Assembly (NCBI GenBank): GCA_963815195.1
Contig: CAWFGE010000015.1
Span: 576,001-640,000, forward strand
Source of the DNA: an uncultured Planctomycetaceae bacterium
Lineage (GTDB): Bacteria > Planctomycetota > Planctomycetia > Planctomycetales > Planctomycetaceae
Reading direction: 5' to 3'
DNA length: 64,000 nt
Shown: positions 45,160 to 53,852 of the stretch, piece by piece
Position numbering within the stretch: position 1 is the stretch's first letter
Layout: the number at the start of each line of letters is the position of its first letter
Notes under the pieces: model-generated
Database searches by the model: none
What the model was told of the DNA's origin: nothing
Seen by the model: only the letters and a program-made list of their open reading frames with translations
Position numbers and translations under genes: made by a program

Positions 45160-45379
45160 GTGAGCGGCACGGCGCTAGCCGCCGGCAAAGTGAGCGGCAC
45201 GGCGCTAGCCGCCGGCAAAGTGAGCGGCACGGCGCTAGCCGCCGGCAAAGTGAGCGGCACGGCGCTAGCCGCCGGCAAAGTGAGCGGCACGGCGCTAGCC
45301 GCCGGCAAAGTGAGCGGCACGGCGCGTAGCCGCCGGCAGATCGAAGTTAAAAAGCCAGGGCCGAGCGCCCAGTCGCTCA
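45160..45379. repeat. 30-bp tandem array (five perfect copies plus one variant) of the TGAGCGG REP left arm, followed by a single right arm
   Basis: GTGAGCGGCACGGCGCTAGCCGCCGGCAAA at 45160, 45190, 45220, 45250 and 45280, variant at 45310; right arm ...AGCGCCCAGTCGCTCA ends at 45379. Confidence 0.95.
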
Positions 45380-46406: not shown

Positions 46407-47546
46407 TCAGGAAATCTGCTGCATTTCTTGCTTGTGGACCGCGGGGACGATGCGATGGTTTCCGGTCAACCGCCATTCGTCGAGAGTGGGCCGGCAAGCC
46501 AAGGTCACATACACAACCGCCGCCGACACGGGGGGAAACGCATATTCGAGGGGCCAGTGGAAATCCCCATACAACCACTTGAGTCCCGCCCCCAACAGAA
46601 ACAGCGCGAGAACGGGAGCCGCGAACACCACGTCGTAGCGGGGGATGATCCAGTGAAAGGTTCTGATCCGCGCCCACAAACTCAGCGGCGGCGAATAGCC
46701 AAACAGGTATCGTATTAAACGGGCGAAAGGCAACACGAGCATGGCGAGAAACGCGAGCCCCACCGATTCTTCGTAGACATGGGCGAGCACGAACACCCAC
46801 CACCCCACGAGCACCGCCAACGCCGCGGCCCAACCGTAGGAAATACAATGCCGCTCCCGCTTGGGCGCCAGAGAATCATACGGCCAGCCGAGTTTCCAGT
46901 TTTGGCTTTGACTGCGAATGGTGTCCGAAGCTAAAGAAATTCGGTCCGTCAACACGGGCAGACCAGGTTGCTTTAGCCACAGGCTGAGGCCGTGATATGC
47001 AATCCCATAAACCGCAAGAAACAACAGCCCCAAGCCCCACGGGTTTGGCGCCAACAGCACCGCTCCGCCGAGGCCGAACCCGAGCAGCCAGGCGTGCCGG
47101 TCCACTCCCGTGCGGACAAACCCGATCGCCACGCACGCCAAATACATCGCCAAAAACACGCCGGGAACCATCCACCACGCCTCCGGCCAATGCCGGGCCC
47201 CCAAGGCCGTAAGCACGCCGACGACAATCCCATCCTGCGGCACGAGATGGATCGGCCCCACCGGCAAAGGCAGCCCCGGACGCCAGGGCGTTTGATTCAG
47301 CCAGGTCCGGTAGTCCGCCATGAAGGCCGGATGAAACGCAAACGCCCGCATCGCGGCATGACCCGCCGCGGCCAAGCCAAGCAGCGGAATCTGCAGCGGC
47401 TCCCAATTCCCATCGAGCGGAAAGCCGCCCTTCCCGCCCACCACGAGCCAATAAGCCAGTTGGGGAAGATAAGACACGGCATACGCCACCGCAAACCCGA
47501 ACGCCAGCCCGTTAAAAGGCAGCACCACGCGGAACCAGGCTCTCAT
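46407..47546 (-). CDS. polytopic membrane protein, probable ABC-2-type permease
   Basis: many TM helices; overlaps the stop of the ABC ATPase (ATGA coupling). Confidence 0.7.
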   Translation of the reverse strand: MRAWFRVVLPFNGLAFGFAVAYAVSYLPQLAYWLVVGGKGGFPLDGNWEPLQIPLLGLAAAGHAAMRAFAFHPAFMADYRTWLNQTPWRPGLPLPVGPIHLVPQDGIVVGVLTALGARHWPEAWWMVPGVFLAMYLACVAIGFVRTGVDRHAWLLGFGLGGAVLLAPNPWGLGLLFLAVYGIAYHGLSLWLKQPGLPVLTDRISLASDTIRSQSQNWKLGWPYDSLAPKRERHCISYGWAAALAVLVGWWVFVLAHVYEESVGLAFLAMLVLPFARLIRYLFGYSPPLSLWARIRTFHWIIPRYDVVFAAPVLALFLLGAGLKWLYGDFHWPLEYAFPPVSAAVVYVTLACRPTLDEWRLTGNHRIVPAVHKQEMQQIS

Positions 47547-48322
47547 CGCTCCTCCCGCGCAAAATAGGCGTCCACATTGATGAGGGTTTCGGGAAAGATC
47601 ACGCGGCCGAGCATCTCGTCCAGGTTCCCCGTGTAGCCCGTCTCCCGGCGAATCTCTTCGAGCGTGCCGTCGATGGCGATGCGGCCCTCGCGAATCACGA
47701 TCAAGCGGTCCGCGATTTCCGCGACGAGTTCGGGCACGGGCGACGTGAGCACGATCGTCACGCCCTGCTCCAGCGACAACCGCCGGAGCACCTGCTTGAG
47801 CGCCATGATCCCGGACGGATCGAGCCCGCCGGAGAACGGCTCATCCAAGAGCAGCACCTCCGCATCCGTGACCAGCGCGGACGAGAGCGCGATCTTTTTC
47901 TGCTGCCCGGCCGAGTAGGTGCGGATCGGCGAATCCGCGAGTTCGGCCAATTGAAACAGATTCAATAGCCGCTGGGCATGGTCGACCAGCCGGTTCTCGT
48001 CGATTTCATAAATCCGGCCGACGGCGAGCAAAAACTCGCGGCCGGTGCGGTTCTTGGGGAGAAAGGCGCGGTCCGGGAGAAACACGACTCGCTTGCGGAG
48101 GGCGAGTTCGTTTTCCACGCTCGACCGCCGGCGGAGGCCCTCGATCTCGACGTAGCCGTGCTGCGGTTCCAACACGCCGCCGAGCACGCTGAGCAGCGTC
48201 GTCTTCCCCATCCCGTTCGGCCCGATCACCACCGACCGGCTCCCCGCCGGGATGTCGAGCGAGATATTCTTCAAGACGGGTTTGACGCCGTAATGCTGGG
48301 TGACATCGACCACGCGAATCAT
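47543..48322 (-). CDS. ABC transporter ATP-binding protein
   Basis: GPNGMGKTT, YSAGQQKK, LLLDEP. Confidence 0.92.
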   Translation of the reverse strand: MIRVVDVTQHYGVKPVLKNISLDIPAGSRSVVIGPNGMGKTTLLSVLGGVLEPQHGYVEIEGLRRRSSVENELALRKRVVFLPDRAFLPKNRTGREFLLAVGRIYEIDENRLVDHAQRLLNLFQLAELADSPIRTYSAGQQKKIALSSALVTDAEVLLLDEPFSGGLDPSGIMALKQVLRRLSLEQGVTIVLTSPVPELVAEIADRLIVIREGRIAIDGTLEEIRRETGYTGNLDEMLGRVIFPETLINVDAYFAREER

Positions 48323-48465
48323 CAGGAGACCTTGTCCCGGGGCTTCGATTGTGCGATAGATTGGGAAACGCAGTGCACAAGGAACAGGTTCACCGCAATC
48401 CGCCGGAATTGCAAGACGGAGATTGGTAAAACGCGAGAGAGCAAGAGCAGATAGGGGTAGTCCCT

Positions 48466-48583
48466 GTAGGGCAGGCTCCCGCCTGCCTTTCTTTCGGAGT
48501 AGGTTCCCGGGAACGTGTGCACGGCGAGAATTGGGCATTTCAACAATGACCAACAAAAGAAGGCAGGCGGGAGCCTGCCCTAC
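48466..48583. repeat. GTAG-type REPIN A
   Basis: GTAGGGCAGGCTCCCGCCTGCCTT ... AAGGCAGGCGGGAGCCTGCCCTAC perfect inverted arms. Confidence 0.9.
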
Positions 48584-48605
48584 TCGGTTCTAAGGAGCAA
48601 TCGCC

Positions 48606-48977
48606 GTGATTAGCGATACCGACATGTGTCAACGACTCAACCTTGTGCGGACATTCGGATCGTTCGTTCTGCAAGAAGTGGGTGGGGAAGGTGACGCGAA
48701 TGTCATTTCCGTAAAGGCTGTCCCGAAAGCCACTGGCGTATACTGGATTGGAGGGACGACCGTTGCCAAATCCGGTGTGGAAATAGACTCTGTCTTTCGA
48801 GTCGATACCAATACCGGAGGCACCCTACTATCGGTCTTCTGGTGGATCAGTGGGAAATGGTATAAACATGAAGATGATGATGCGTTAGTCGCGTTAGGGC
48901 TATTAAAGGAAGAAGCATTTCCGTTCGACTGGCGATTCACCACGCCATTGGAAGAGGATATTTTTCACCCCACGTAG
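48606..48977 (+). CDS. hypothetical protein, possible orphan immunity protein
   Basis: TAAGGAG RBS, lower GC, 123 aa, bounded by REP-like sequences on both sides. Confidence 0.6.
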   Translation: MISDTDMCQRLNLVRTFGSFVLQEVGGEGDANVISVKAVPKATGVYWIGGTTVAKSGVEIDSVFRVDTNTGGTLLSVFWWISGKWYKHEDDDALVALGLLKEEAFPFDWRFTTPLEEDIFHPT

Positions 48978-49063
48978 GCGGCGGGGTGGCACTGTTAGTT
49001 CTGTTAATTCGGGGTTGTTAACAGTCTTTCGGGTGCCACTGGCAACTTGTTGCCAGTGCTTTC
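48977..49063. repeat. 87-bp direct repeat, copy 1 (CGGCGGGGTGGCA core plus two hairpins)
   Basis: one mismatch versus 49581-49667; includes ACTGTTA...TAACAGT and CACTGGCAAC/GTTGCCAGTG. Confidence 0.95.
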
Positions 49064-49144
49064 CAGCAGCATGGAATTGGAACGTTTCAAAACTCGATTG
49101 GATTATCCGATTCACACTGGCAGGCAAGCTGCCAGTGGCACCCG
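49030..49144. repeat. GGGTG-type REPIN
   Basis: CGGGTGCCACTGGCA ... TGCCAGTGGCACCCG inverted arms. Confidence 0.8.
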
Positions 49145-49187
49145 GCGTTTCTGACCTTCCACCTGCATTGCAATGAGGTTTACTAGA

Positions 49188-49541
49188 ATGACAGAGTTAT
49201 ACTTCGAAGAAGACGGCGTGGTTTCTTTATGGGTTGGCCAAAAGCGAGTTGCGACCGGATCAAATTTCCTTCGAGATAAATATGGGATCGAATATTATGA
49301 TCCAGATAACCAAGAGTGTGTTATAGAGGAATCGGTCACTCCCCTTTTTGACCTCCTATCGCAATTGTCGTACTCGGAGTCTTTTCGGGACGACGCATTT
49401 GAAGCTGCAAAGCATCTCGGCATCACGTCGGCACTATGGATAATGGCGCAATACGATTACGCCTATGATCCTGTTGCTGCCGGTTTGACTGCAATGCCTG
49501 ATGAACCTGTATTCATAGGTAGATTTGGCTGGCATGAATAG
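49188..49541 (+). CDS. Imm22-like immunity protein
   Basis: VVSLWVG, YGIEYYDPD.QE, LLSQLSYSESF, YDYAY, FIGRF pattern typical of the immunity 22 family. Confidence 0.7.
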   Translation: MTELYFEEDGVVSLWVGQKRVATGSNFLRDKYGIEYYDPDNQECVIEESVTPLFDLLSQLSYSESFRDDAFEAAKHLGITSALWIMAQYDYAYDPVAAGLTAMPDEPVFIGRFGWHE

Positions 49542-49580
49542 CACGATCCCGCCGGCAATCGCATTTCGGAGGAAGCCGAT

Positions 49581-49667
49581 GGCGGCGGGGTGGCACTGTT
49601 AATTCTGTTAATTCGGGGTTGTTAACAGTCTTTCGGGTGCCACTGGCAACTTGTTGCCAGTGCTTTC
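49581..49667. repeat. 87-bp direct repeat, copy 2
   Basis: near-identical to 48977-49063. Confidence 0.95.
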
Positions 49668-49721
49668 TAAGACGATCTTCCGAACGACATGAATCCCTCA
49701 ATCCGAAGAACGGACCCCAGA

Positions 49722-50105
49722 ATGGCAGACCGTCGAAAAACCGTGAAACACTACCATGAGCCGGGGGATTGTCACGAGCTGACGTTTTCCTGTTATCGCC
49801 GAATGCCGTTGTTGACCAATGATCCTTGGCGAAAGCTGTTGGCCAGGCAGATTGACACCGCCAACGAACGCCATGCGTTCCGTTTGGTCGCTTTTGTATT
49901 CATGCCGGAGCATCTGCATCTTTTGGTTTATCCCGTGGGAGAGTCGGAGGTCAGCGATTTGCTCAAGGCCATCAAGAAACCGTTTTCGTTCCGGATCAAA
50001 GGGCTTCTCAAAGAACAAAACAGTCCGTTGCTGAACCGCCTTACGATTCGAGAACGCCCCGGCAAGATGTCTTTCCGATACTGGCAAGAAGGAGGAGTGA
50101 CGTAG
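49722..50105 (+). mobile_element. REP-associated tyrosine (HUH/Y1, RAYT-like) transposase, 3'-truncated
   Basis: HELTFSCYRR, AFVFMPEHLHLL (HUH motif), RYWQEGG then a stop inside a GTAG REP; catalytic Tyr helix (YI..NP) missing. Confidence 0.85.
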
Positions 50106-50234
50106 GGCCGGCTGTGCCGGCCTTTTCGACGAAGGGAATCGTACTTATGCCCAATTGGCGGCTGGGTATGCCGGCCATTTGGTGCGAGAAAAATCGTTGT
50201 GTCAAAAACAAAAGGCCGGCACAGCCGGCCCTAC
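50102..50234. repeat. GTAG-type REPIN B
   Basis: GTAGGGCCGGCTGTGCCGGCCTTTT ... AAAAGGCCGGCACAGCCGGCCCTAC. Confidence 0.9.
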
Positions 50235-50271
50235 TCGGCTCATGCAAAGCCATGAGCATGCCACCCCGCCG

Positions 50272-50338
50272 AGTCAAAAGTGCCGTTGCCGTCGTCATCC
50301 ACGTATTTGGCGATCCGGCGGCCGAAGGCGTCGTAGAA
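50272..50338 (-). pseudogene. 22-codon fragment of an RHS/YD-repeat protein
   Basis: translates FYDAFGRRIAKYVDDDGNGTFD, a typical YD-repeat (YDxxGRR) unit. Confidence 0.6.
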
Positions 50339-50371
50339 CATGCTCATGCAAAGCCATGAGCATGCCACCCC

Positions 50372-50635
50372 GCCGTGCTGCGGTTCCAAGACGCCCCCCA
50401 GCACGCTCAACAGCGTCGTCTTCCCCATGCCGTTGGGCCCAATGACCACCGACCGGCTCCCCGCGGGGATGTCGAGCGAGATATTCTTCAACACGGGTTT
50501 CACGCCGTAATGCTGGGTGACATCGACCACGCGAATCATCGAGGAGACCTTGTGGAGGGGGGCTGCCATCGTGCGAGAGATTGCCGAACGCAGTGCACAA
50601 GGAACAGGTTCACCGCAATCCGGCGGAATTGCAAG
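50372..50635 (-). pseudogene. second, diverged copy of the first 56 codons and upstream region of the ABC ATPase gene
   Basis: aligns to 48155-48415; identical peptide, 12 substitutions in the coding part, all synonymous. Confidence 0.92.
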
Positions 50636-50887
50636 TCATGGATTTCTCAATCCGCCCAATGTACGATACCAATCGCCCCCCTGCCCCATTGCCGGCGAGG
50701 CCCAACCTGTTATTGCCGCGGCGGGGTGACATGCTCATGGCTTTGCATGAGCATGTCTTCTGCAGGTTCGATGAGTCCGCGAGGTGACTTTGCCATTGGA
50801 TTGAGGGGCCGTGTCTTTGATGCCGAGAAATCAGGGCTTCGTCAAAACTCATGCTCATGCAAAGCCATGAGCATGCCACCCCGCCGT

Positions 50888-51895
50888 TCACCCATTCAGC
50901 CAGAGGATGAGACTTAGGAGCGCTAACAAGATAACCCAAACGAGGATCGCCCGCCAAGTGGCCTTTTTGGCCCGTTCTGCTTCCCACCAGCTTCGAGGCC
51001 GAACTCCTTGTGCAAGAAATGTGGCGACACCGGCCAGATTGATACAGATAAGATTCGCCCCGGACAAAAGAAACGCCCCGAAAGCGAGTGTGAAGTCACC
51101 TTCCCCAACCAACATTCCGCAAACGACGAGTGGAGGTACCAGCGCCACAGCCACCATGACACCGATCACGGCCCCCGACAGTCCTTGGGTGAATGCCAAC
51201 GTTCCGGCGCAGCCGGCCGCTAAAGCCAATAAGATATCGCCTAGCCCAACCTCAGTCCGTGATGCGATGGCGGGAACAGCGGCATCGACCTGGAGCGGAA
51301 CGCCAATAACGACAGCACACGCAAAGGCCACAAGAACTCCGATGATGTTCGTTAACAACGCTCGGCGAAGAAGATCAAAATCCCCCAGCGTCGTCGCAAG
51401 CGACATGGCAACATTCGGGCCCAAGAGAGGAGCGATCACCATCGCTCCAATAATTACAGCGACATCGTCTCGCAATAGCCCCACCGCCGCGACGACGGCC
51501 GAGAGGATGGTCATCCCCAAGAAGACACGGGAAACGCCGAGTCCCTCACTGACCTCGGCGTAGAGTTCCTCGCGGCTAATCCGTTGCTGTGCCGTCTTCT
51601 GTTCCTCTTCTGAGGTGGATTTCGGCTCCGTGCTTTCCTTTTCCTCCGGCGCGACCCGAGGCAGAACCGCTTCGACCGGAAGCAAAATGACATGGAAGCC
51701 TTTGGTGTGGGCGTATTGTTGCTCAAACCGATCCATGATCAGCTCGGTTTCCTCGGCAGGAACTAATAAATGCAACACAATCTGGTTGGCATCGGTGTCT
51801 CGCCAGCGGCCAAGTATCTCATGCCCTTCGAGCAATTCCTTGAGTTGATCCTCGCTGCTCAGCGGAACGAAGATTTGCATGATACGAAGGTTCAT
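50888..51895 (-). CDS. TIGR00341 / DUF389 family membrane protein
   Basis: AVIIGAMVIAPLLGP, IASRT, GVMVAVALVPPL, NLICINLA. Confidence 0.88.
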   Translation of the reverse strand: MNLRIMQIFVPLSSEDQLKELLEGHEILGRWRDTDANQIVLHLLVPAEETELIMDRFEQQYAHTKGFHVILLPVEAVLPRVAPEEKESTEPKSTSEEEQKTAQQRISREELYAEVSEGLGVSRVFLGMTILSAVVAAVGLLRDDVAVIIGAMVIAPLLGPNVAMSLATTLGDFDLLRRALLTNIIGVLVAFACAVVIGVPLQVDAAVPAIASRTEVGLGDILLALAAGCAGTLAFTQGLSGAVIGVMVAVALVPPLVVCGMLVGEGDFTLAFGAFLLSGANLICINLAGVATFLAQGVRPRSWWEAERAKKATWRAILVWVILLALLSLILWLNG

Positions 51896-51974
51896 CGTTC
51901 GTTCAAGTTCCAAATATCAGGGATTGGAATCGGACAGTTTGTTCAACAAACGTGTGGGGTGTTCTTTCTCCCAT

Positions 51975-52388
51975 TTAATCGAGTATCCCGTCCCAAAAGA
52001 AGAGTTGCCCGTCGACCGCTTTCACGGCTTTGACCTCCCCATCCTGAGACACGATCAAGCCAATGGCTTGCTCGCATTTGTGGCAGACGGAAAAAACCGA
52101 CTGGTGCCGCAGTCCCCACTGGTCACACAAGTACTCGGTCCCGGTCAGGGCATCCACTACAGCGGTTTCCGGCGGAAGGAGAAGGGGGAATCGCACGCCA
52201 AATCCTTGAAGTCGGAGGTGGCCATCGAGAAGAACGGCTCCATCAACGGCCGCCAGCAAGCTGATCTGACTGATGCCTCGAATCAGTTGTCGGCTCATGC
52301 GGTGCATCGAAAGTTCCGCCTGGCAGCGTGCCAATTCGGCCGTAGGATCTGATGAGGACTGCGGCGCACGCAGCAAATCATCCAGTAA
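51975..52388 (-). pseudogene. 3' fragment of a DAC (DisA_N)-fold domain gene, cut at a REPIN
   Basis: LAAVDGAVLL, GFG, WGLRHQSV, IVSQDGEV; frame stays open into the REP with no credible start. Confidence 0.65.
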
Positions 52389-52452
52389 GTAGGGTGGGCA
52401 CCGCCCACCAATGGTTTCCTGATTCCATGTTGGTGGGCGATGCCCATCCTAC
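52389..52452. repeat. GTAG-type REPIN C
   Basis: GTAGGGTGGGCACCGCCCACCAA ... TTGGTGGGCGATGCCCATCCTAC. Confidence 0.88.
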
Positions 52453-52479
52453 TTTCTACGGGGGACGCGAGACTGGATT

Positions 52480-53852
52480 CTAACCGAATAGCGCCGCGAT
52501 CGGGCGGCCTTCGCAGAATTTGAGGGGGCGGCCCAGGGGGTCGCGGAGCGTTTGGTCGGGGGCGATGCCCAGGGCCTCGTAGACGGTGGCGGCGTAATCG
52601 AGCGGGGAGACGGGGCGTTCTTCCGGGTAGCCGCCCTGCGAATCGCTGGCTCCGTAAACCGCCCCGCCCCGAATCCCGCCGCCGGCGAAGAGACCGGAAT
52701 AGCAGAACGGCCAATGCTCGCGCCCGGCGTTGCCTTGGGTGATATTCGGGCTTGCGGCCGAACTCGCCGACCCAGGCGACGAGGGTTTCGTCCAAGAGGC
52801 CGCGCTCGGAGAGATCGTCCAAGAGCGCGACGAGCGCGGTTTCCGCCGGCGGCAAGAGGTCGTTCTTGAGGCGATGGAAATTGTTGCTGTGCGTGTCCCA
52901 GAACGCGTGGCCGTCGTTGTGCCAGTTGACCGAAACCAACGGCACGCCGCGCTCGACAAGCCGGCGGGCGAGGAGCACGCTTTGCCCGTGGATATTCCGC
53001 CCGTAGCGGTCGCGGAGCGTGTCCGCTTCTTGGGAAAGATCAAACGCCTCGCGGGCGGCTTTCGCGGTCAATAGGCCGAAGGCTTGCTGTTGATAGCCGG
53101 TCCAGGACGCGTTCTCGGCCCGTTTCGCCAATCGGCCGCGGGCCTCGTCGAGCGAGGTCAGGAGTTCCTGCCGGCGGACGAGACGCTGCGCGGTGAGGCC
53201 GTCCTGCAGAGACGAGTTCCGGGACGTTCCAGCCGGGGGCGTTGGGGTCGCCGGTGACGAGAAACGGGTCGTACTTCTTCCCCAGCCAACCGCCGTGCTG
53301 TCCGGGAGCCCGGCCGCCGGGTGCTGCGGGGTGAAAGACTTTCCAGGGGACCATCACCGCCGCGGGCAGTTCGCCGGTACTGGGCCGAAGCTTCGCCAGC
53401 ACGGCCCCCATGTGCGGCGTATCTTTTTCGCTCGGCGGATCCTGATCGCTTTTGACGACCGGAGCCCAATGCCCCGTCACGGTCGCATGCCCGCTGGAAA
53501 GATGGGCGGCATCATCGTGCGAGAGCGAACGAATCACCGCGACCCGGTCCATCCGCCGGGCGATCTGCGGCAAATGTTCGCAAACGATGGTGCCGGGGAC
53601 GTTGGTGGCGATGGGATGGAACTCACCGCGAACTTCCGCGGGGGCATCGGGCTTGGGGTCCAGACGTATCCAGATGACTGGGACCGCCCCAGAGGAAAAT
53701 AAAGATGCAAGCCTTCGCCCTGCCCTCTTTCGGTGGCTTCGTCTTGGCGGCGAAGAGATCCGGAACGTGAGACCCAACGTGCCGAGCGTGCCGACTTCCA
53801 GCAACCGCCGGCGGTTTAGGACATGCATCGGCTGGTGATCGCGAGAATTCAT
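52480..53852 (-). CDS. DUF1501 domain protein (several frameshifts)
   Basis: LNRRRLL, CIFIFLWGGPSHLD, PKPDAPAEVRGEF, WDTH, GEFGRKP, GREHWP spread over three frames. Confidence 0.85.

Follow-up and report, generated by a model that had tools for sequence, protein, structure and literature searches.

A REP-bounded gene mosaic in a Planctomycetaceae genome, joined at fixed dinucleotides, and the possible role of RAYTs

This study was concerned with a mosaic of genes and gene fragments lying between an ATP-binding cassette (ABC) transporter ATPase gene and a DUF1501 gene in a 64,000-nucleotide stretch of DNA (the window, G000:C15:576001-640000) from an uncultured Planctomycetaceae bacterium. Gnnn labels denote genomes (G000 being the source genome, 8.87 Mb in 25 contigs and planctomycete-like in its DUF1501 genes), Cn labels contigs and Lnnn labels extracted loci; a contig without a genome prefix belongs to G000. 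The mosaic is real, and its modules meet at the ends of repetitive extragenic palindromic (REP) elements, where deletions, duplications and captured pieces follow a common rule: the join falls on a fixed dinucleotide outside the REP. REP-associated tyrosine transposases (RAYTs) encoded elsewhere probably act in trans to join REP ends to host or foreign DNA at this dinucleotide, one end at a time, and selection then keeps the useful genes.

Joins at REP ends

In each array element a hairpin comes after a GT[AG]G tetranucleotide, and the elements stand in inverted doublets (REPINs). G000 is very rich in short repeats and holds 481 ends of seven REP families, of GTGG or GTAG class, and 24 multi-family REP mosaics. 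Because a generic hairpin finder missed most of these families, motifs from G000 were used to define them, which biases searches of other genomes and the labels on trees. A reading of the window from its sequence alone (the sequence-only reading) had found the core CGGCGGGGTG(G/A)CA six times, and it does occur at 48979, 49583 and 50719 on the plus strand and at 50259, 50363 and 50874 on the minus strand. The core has 48 copies genome-wide, compared with about one expected for this 13-mer under a 5th-order Markov model. It recurs, but it is not a separate element, being the REP foot plus the outer end common to several REP families. Other hairpin families are also many in G000; one repeat has 225 copies of its top 20-mer and another has 128.

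The sequences part at a fixed dinucleotide that lies 5-7 nt out from the REP foot: GTGG feet have CG and GTAG feet CT (AG). CG is kept at -7 from the foot in 40 of 49 ends of GTGG family G1, and AG is kept at -6 or -7 in the GTAG families (at -6 in 36 of 43 A1 ends, and in 40 of 51 A2 ends); further out the sequence is free. In the window, four joins have a findable original, and in all four the identity of the flank to the REP-free copy ends at the dinucleotide. These are the ABC copy (CG, compared with 48155; the native reads CGGC-TAC and the copy CGGC-GGG), the 3' end of the DUF389 gene (CG, compared with G001, diverging after CGGC), the RAYT truncation (AG, compared with C13:936977, 99% identity) and the beheading of the DAC gene (AG, compared with G003). 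The window RAYT is 99% identical to C13:936751-936973, where the native continues beyond the AG. The ABC and DUF389 joins had pointed to a target of four letters, CGGC, which was rejected because the remaining natives share CG alone.

Two wider tests were made. In the fixed-offset test, 52 of 445 G000 ends were informative, and the native has the site in 16 of 25 CG and 10 of 16 AG cases (background 0.11 and 0.046); in G001, 14 of 114 ends were informative, and the native shares the site in nine of the 11 that have one. In the blind test, the last 12 nt were hidden and flanks of at least 90% identity were kept, which gave 36 distinct joins from 522 ends. The cognate dinucleotide lay within the last four shared bases in 28 of the 36 (15 of 18 GTGG and 13 of 18 GTAG joins, with rough binomial p values of 4e-6 and 2e-8) and the non-cognate one in three; the joins are not fully independent. 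The earlier proposal that REP ends act as joining sites is thus upheld by the window joins and by the blind test. In addition, tandem copies in G000 are closed at CT (C12:179525) or at CG (C13:1118260, three copies), an 84-bp duplication round one REPIN is bounded by the site, and an 836-bp insertion sequence (IS) piece has CG-REP joins on both sides. REPIN B of the window is joined at 50239 to the hairpin of an unlike REP with which it has two letters in common.

These REPs stand at breaks in synteny. Of 34 REP blocks in 1.2 Mb of G001 tiles taken without selection, one was syntenic; the counts were 19 of 48 for other repeats, 226 of 400 for random sites and 93 of 300 for low-GC sites. In the reverse direction the counts were 0 of 29 REP blocks and 43 of 112 other repeats; in G000, too, the other repeats tested remain syntenic more often than these REPs. 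No clean empty or shared site was found in G000 for any of 30 G001 REPINs, some of them from stretches picked for holding the core. At the locus itself, the congener G002 has the DUF1501 gene about 120 bp from the ABC gene with no searched REP motif between them, an empty locus. G001 has a different REPIN there followed by a beheaded permease gene, the ABC gene being gone and the CT join being judged by eye. The whole DAC and DUF389 genes lie together at another, REP-free place in G003, and G001 has DUF389 alone, flanked by outward-facing cores. Variable segments in relatives thus break at REP ends, as the sequence-only reading had required. The same REP end motif also occurs in other genera and one other family, and CG-joined duplications were found in G026 and G430.

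Run X1, which may be the source sample, contains pieces identical to the window at 48372-48500 and 48572-48916. One 208-nt contig of this run passes from 48500 to 52384 and leaves out 3883 nt. The two sides have two letters in common; in the window these are the AG at 48501-02, in the spacer of REPIN A, and the AG at 52384-85. Two shared letters are too little for homologous recombination.

RAYT enzymes and the origin of the joins

G000 and G001 each have 13 RAYT matches, including near-identical duplicates and often cut, and neither genome has a single-copy domesticated RAYT. Two clades were separated in a quick tree with REP labels taken from the G000 motifs. GTAG REPs flank six of six RAYTs of the first clade (WQxxFWEH type), while GTGG-type REPs flank 23 of 31 rows of the second (FWQxGxG type) and GTAG REPs none; judged by these flanks, the two clades match the two REP classes. 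Whole genes of both clades, over the NF047646 cut-off, with HUH motif, catalytic tyrosine and cognate flanking REPs, are present at C12:908728-909312 and C11:44467-45063. The C12 RAYT is close to Escherichia coli TnpAREP (4ER8, E 2.7e-37), and the FWQxGxG type is distant from it (E 3.5e-7). The window RAYT is of the FWQxGxG type and stops before the catalytic tyrosine, and it is a cut relic. Of 301 genomes of the phylum, 25 have the GTGG clade. Y1_Tnp is the only transposase domain found in the array by Pfam scan, and the NF033573 score (IS200/IS605 TnpA type) is far below the cut-off.

TnpAREP of E. coli makes its C|T cut on either flank of a REP, also at a distance, and then rejoins the ends, and sequestering of flanking genes or fragments by it was proposed in 2012 by Ton-Hoang (PMC3333891). 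On the preferred explanation, an intact RAYT encoded elsewhere would act in trans, cutting single-stranded DNA at the dinucleotide and rejoining one end at a time. The enzyme would bind the REP hairpin and cut the site just beyond the partner arm, and it would also cut a second strand, either distant or incoming, at any dinucleotide that matches, with the ends swapped. The other side would be resolved by replication or homologous recombination, and arrays would grow by repeated events at a resident REP. Such capture would be imprecise and not function-specific; selection would probably keep whole useful genes, for example orphan immunity genes, and some arrays would serve as acquired-immunity stores. 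The sequence-only reading had called this role not established for RAYTs. In vivo the role is still a proposed one, the in-vivo role and host benefit of RAYTs and REPINs being stated as open (10.1101/2021.07.10.451892), but it was not unanticipated, given the 2012 proposal. Further literature is found in PMC3337134, PMC3733652 and 10.1101/2024.07.17.603846.

Several points weigh against RAYT-made joins. First, we infer RAYT catalysis from sequence, and single steps were not seen, the relatives being different species. Secondly, few ends could enter the fixed-offset test, 11 of its 52 informative ends lack a site at the fixed offsets, and natives share the site in only the fractions given above. 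In the blind test, eight of 36 joins stop before the site, some visibly at a substitution ahead of it, and only 16 of 36 end on it exactly. Third, a GTGG guide directs C|C or C|A cleavage in vitro, not C|G (PMC8266576); marginal RAYTs enriched for GTGG have been described (PMC6006769). C|G is absent among the published GTGG-guide sites, so the CG class needs a specificity of its own, which is predicted here. Fourth, the X1 join is a single contig of depth 2.5 with a 31-nt side. Fifth, no long array was found in 20 stretches from six other genomes, and beyond the lineage CG stands at -7 in only six of 55 feet beside related, distant RAYTs. Lastly, joins at the site are also predicted if RAYTs do no more than place REPINs into dispensable DNA at CT or CG, and host recombination between near-identical copies, chromosomal or incoming, makes the deletions, duplications and arrays. 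This explanation agrees with the near-identical direct copies of 145-224 bp that the arrays hold, and with the position of these REPs near accessory genes in general. However, it would make clean insertions common, and these were observed in 0 of 30 and 0 of 29 cases. The unlike-REP joins (REPIN B at 50239 and X1) share just two letters, and the 84-bp duplication round one REPIN would need two insertions 80 bp apart. For these reasons, insertion followed by recombination is considered unlikely, though it is the strongest of the alternatives.

Immunity genes and other cargo

Two co-oriented immunity genes without toxins lie in the window (48606-48977 and 49173-49541, GC about 0.48), the arrangement of an orphan-immunity array. 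The second is an Imm22 gene by Pfam match, and a match to it was found in one of 400 other genomes of the phylum. The first (the orphan) has 14 relatives at 50-79% identity. Four homologous loci were recovered, and in the three with upstream sequence (L058, L060 and L062) the homolog directly follows the same toxin tip, which we take to be HNH-like from its motif; in L058 the tip sits on an RHS core. Because its homologs directly follow this tip, the orphan is likely an immunity gene without its toxin. The orphan was modelled with a predicted local distance difference test (pLDDT) of 92, and Foldseek of the model against the PDB, an atlas search and a first metagenome scan with a single protein query gave no match.

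Similar arrays were found elsewhere. C12:907.7-911.2k (L039:2746-6192) has three co-oriented single genes of unknown kind, repeated REPINs and a whole GTAG-clade RAYT. G001:C25:154-164k (L022:900-11400) is an array of about 10 kb with four near-identical 224-bp REPINs and co-oriented SUKH, ankyrin and other small genes; it also carries a 5' duplicate of the gene downstream, comparable to the ABC copy in the window and with its cut at AG. This is the cleanest array found; a transposase gene has been inserted in it, and a ClpB-like piece in it ends at a CG cut. L058 (Ga0316209_1004121) belongs to another organism and combines RHS tips, Imm49 and SUKH with three GTGG REPINs of 164 bp that end in CG; a GTAG REP stands right after its orphan homolog. 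L042 (G000:C15:248.7-253k) has tandem ankyrin gene paralogs with REPIN B copies at the boundaries.

These observations bear on a second alternative, a dedicated integron-like acquired-immunity system in which a RAYT and its REPINs collect whole immunity genes in ordered, expressed arrays. The two immunity genes of the window, one of which keeps 18 nt ahead of it and 4 nt behind, are as it predicts, as are the C12, G001:C25 and L058 arrays. Pfam matches to toxin or immunity families (E<=0.001) were found in three of 30 REP-bounded open reading frames (ORFs) and in none of 110 controls, sampled from 186, but two of the three come from one array; a fourth G001 match, which passes 0.01 but not 0.001, was left out. 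Outward-facing segments are mostly one whole ORF in 18 of 33 cases, compared with 171 of 646 controls, a biased comparison because any intergenic repeat bounds genes. Against such a system, these REPs lie within 1.5 kb of four of 22 SUKH loci and five of 16 PemK loci (p 0.45; two duplicate PemK loci dropped), leaving 18 of 22 SUKH loci without one. Immunity-specific targeting did not show in this comparison, since SUKH lies no closer to REPs than PemK. Pfam was also run on G000 cargo, 66 of 89 called ORFs being scanned: 47 had no match, six were transposases, and the only SUKH or AHH matches, two in number, were below the cut-off. The cargo includes broken housekeeping, host and IS DNA (cut ABC, DAC, ClpB-like, RAYT and IS pieces), and there is no fixed enzyme position and no shared promoter. 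Immunity genes are thus among the cargo, but an array dedicated to them, as that reading had it, is improbable and ranks behind the recombination explanation.

Trans-acting RAYT capture followed by selection remains the preferred explanation. A broader version is offered tentatively and is on balance doubtful: RAYT-REPIN pairs would be an HUH gene-capture platform, an integron analogue without a tyrosine recombinase, in which CT and CG clades stitch single-stranded DNA into immunity-storing arrays and the benefit keeps RAYTs. Either version would offer a third route to orphan-immunity arrays besides tyrosine recombinases and homologous recombination, and a long-puzzling repeat family would gain a role in capturing and reshuffling genes. 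The C|T chemistry known from in-vitro work shows here as a footprint in the genome, at dozens of joins by which genes are deleted, duplicated or imported, and two named RAYTs can be tested, with a new C|G specificity predicted for the GTGG clade. A literature search, with subscription papers outside its reach, gave no paper on RAYT-built gene or immunity arrays, and a term search for RAYT in a 2026 preprint on Stenotrophomonas poly-immunity clusters gave nothing.

An assembly artefact at repeats, or true integron cassettes with attC sites and IntI elsewhere, is very improbable: the neighbouring DUF1501 gene has indels, no contig of the runs examined spans the array and IntI is present on C25, but misassembly, the refuting outcome named by the sequence-only reading, is unlikely with an ABC copy 10% diverged and so not a collapsed repeat, the same rule in independently assembled genomes and X1 pieces matching without difference, and attC-like sites number zero in three arrays while the same scan was positive beside IntI in two of three control loci.

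Array features and comparison with known systems

GC drops from about 0.62 to 0.47-0.56 over the array, and each module listed by the sequence-only reading was found in place and in order (Table 1).

Table 1. Features of the array and its two neighbours (window coordinates)
Feature	Position	Strand	Remarks
ABC transporter ATPase gene, intact, left neighbour	47543..48322	-	PF00005, 94 bits; ~120 bp from DUF1501 gene in G002
REPIN A, GTAG class	48459..48587		Outer AG 48459-60; right end CCCTACTCGG; CT two bases further out than usual
Orphan gene, likely immunity for HNH-like RHS toxin tip	48606..48977	+	No toxin upstream here; homologs follow toxin tip
GTGG-class REPIN, empty REPtron derivative	48979..49147	+	CG at each end
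Imm22 (DUF4284) immunity gene	49173..49541	+	PF14112, 36 bits, E 1.2e-8, over cut-off; no toxin upstream
Second 87-bp copy, left arm of GTGG-class REPtron	49583..49667	+	CG at start; 49583-49807 88% to C13:939123-939344
Truncated GTGG-clade RAYT	49689..50097	+	PF01797 (Y1_Tnp); NF047646 below cut-off; retains HUH but not the catalytic tyrosine; cut at AG 50096-97
REPIN B, GTAG class	50096..50240	+	Right CT (50239-40) fused into hairpin of next REP
Half REP, GTGG class	50238..50271	-	Outer CG 50270-71
67-nt foreign piece, translation presumably RHS/YD-repeat-like	50272..50338	-	No native copy in G000
Half REP, GTGG class	50339..50375	-	Outer CG 50374-75
Diverged copy of ABC upstream region and 5' end	50372..50635	-	90% DNA identity to 48155-48415; cut at CG
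REPIN D, GTGG class	50719..50886		44-nt arms; CG at each end
DUF389 gene, whole	50888..51913	-	PF04087; 93% to G001; 3' join at CG just beyond stop
3' third of DACNV-DAC gene	51975..52383	-	Weak DAC Pfam match; cut at AG 52384-85; whole 420-aa gene before DUF389 in G003
REPIN C, GTAG class	52384..52457		Ends carry AG and CT
DUF1501 gene, right neighbour, frameshifted in this assembly	52480..53852	-	Split by indels relative to G001

REPINs A and B share the terminal CCCTACTCGG, as had been noted. Some modules need redefinition. The 87-bp repeat is present twice, but it is not independent; it forms the left arm both of a REPtron and of the empty form derived from it, because the match of 49583-49807 to C13 includes the RAYT start. 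DUF389 and the beheaded DAC gene are both present as one module instead of two, being adjacent and REP-free in G003. The RHS label of the 67-nt piece is putative and comes from a YD-repeat motif, YDAFGRR. Module boundaries mostly coincide with REP ends, except that the right end of REPIN A is off-spacing and 50636-50718 is unexplained. The DUF1501 indels (52480-53852) are an assembly error or decay. Outside the array, a 30-bp tandem repeat of about six copies follows a redoxin-like gene (from ORF translations) at 45160-45330, with one related unit in G001 (L014).

Like integrons and the Bacteroidales rAID-1 systems, the array has low-GC, co-oriented small genes between repeats and orphan immunity cargo. 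Unlike it, rAID-1 arrays and integrons have a tyrosine recombinase at the array head (10.1101/471110), and integrons have attC; both are missing here. No IntI lies beside the array and no XerD-like recombinase was found 5' of it. The absence of a nearby integrase, already noted, extends to any tyrosine recombinase within 270 kb on contig C15, the nearest being at 353 kb with the array at 624 kb, and IntI occurs on C25 only. Integron or rAID-1 identity was therefore rejected, there being no neighbouring recombinase and no attC in three arrays. The earlier description as an integron-like array does not extend to cassettes, the array joins cutting inside genes. Short C-terminal integron-integrase-like fragments are repeated in the genomes (G001:C38:285797, C41:110447 and C8:94517; G000:C21:244862 and C18:170171), and in L182 (G002:C7:264211-266699) an IntI gene with two in-frame stops has a GTGG REP about 1.5 kb away and an attC-like site nearby.

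The hallmarks of IS91 and ISCR elements are a transposase of Y2 or ISCR type and a pair of ends, ori and ter; like Helitrons, these elements capture adjacent genes by one-ended rolling-circle transposition. The array resembles them in HUH chemistry, short target and adjacent-gene capture, a comparison drawn in PMC3333891. It differs in that its RAYT is of the Y1 kind, its site has two letters, non-autonomous hairpins are joined on either side and no ori/ter pair was shown. IS200/IS605 elements (IS608, ISDra2) share the Y1 HUH fold, hairpin ends, a site kept at the join and no classical target duplication. The array differs from them in its dinucleotide site (an exact two-letter block in 16 of 36 joins), its NF047646-type protein and the absence of clean two-ended insertions. 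An IS200/IS605 identity, with a 4-5 nt target and precise insertion, was rejected on the NF033573 score and on 0 of 30 clean insertions.

The closest likeness is to REPtrons, REPINs and bacterial interspersed mosaic elements (BIMEs) with their RAYTs (E. coli yafM, P. fluorescens SBW25). Shared features are the GT[AG]G foot with hairpin, inverted doublets, REP-flanked RAYTs and CT joins, together with flanking DNA carried in tandem clusters (PMC3116915), captured 3' ends of RAYTs (PMC2817692) and proposed gene or fragment capture (PMC3333891). A footprint such as C|T cleavage would leave is present at 13 of 18 GTAG joins, with CG instead at GTGG joins. Unlike in known REPIN-RAYT systems, the RAYTs here are multi-copy and often cut, the REPINs stand at synteny breaks and not at conserved intergenic sites, the GTGG clade joins at CG, and kilobase arrays hold whole foreign genes, which was not found in the literature searched. 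Although not documented as arrays in that literature, the mosaic is a variant of the REPIN-RAYT kind, for which a capture role had been proposed before.

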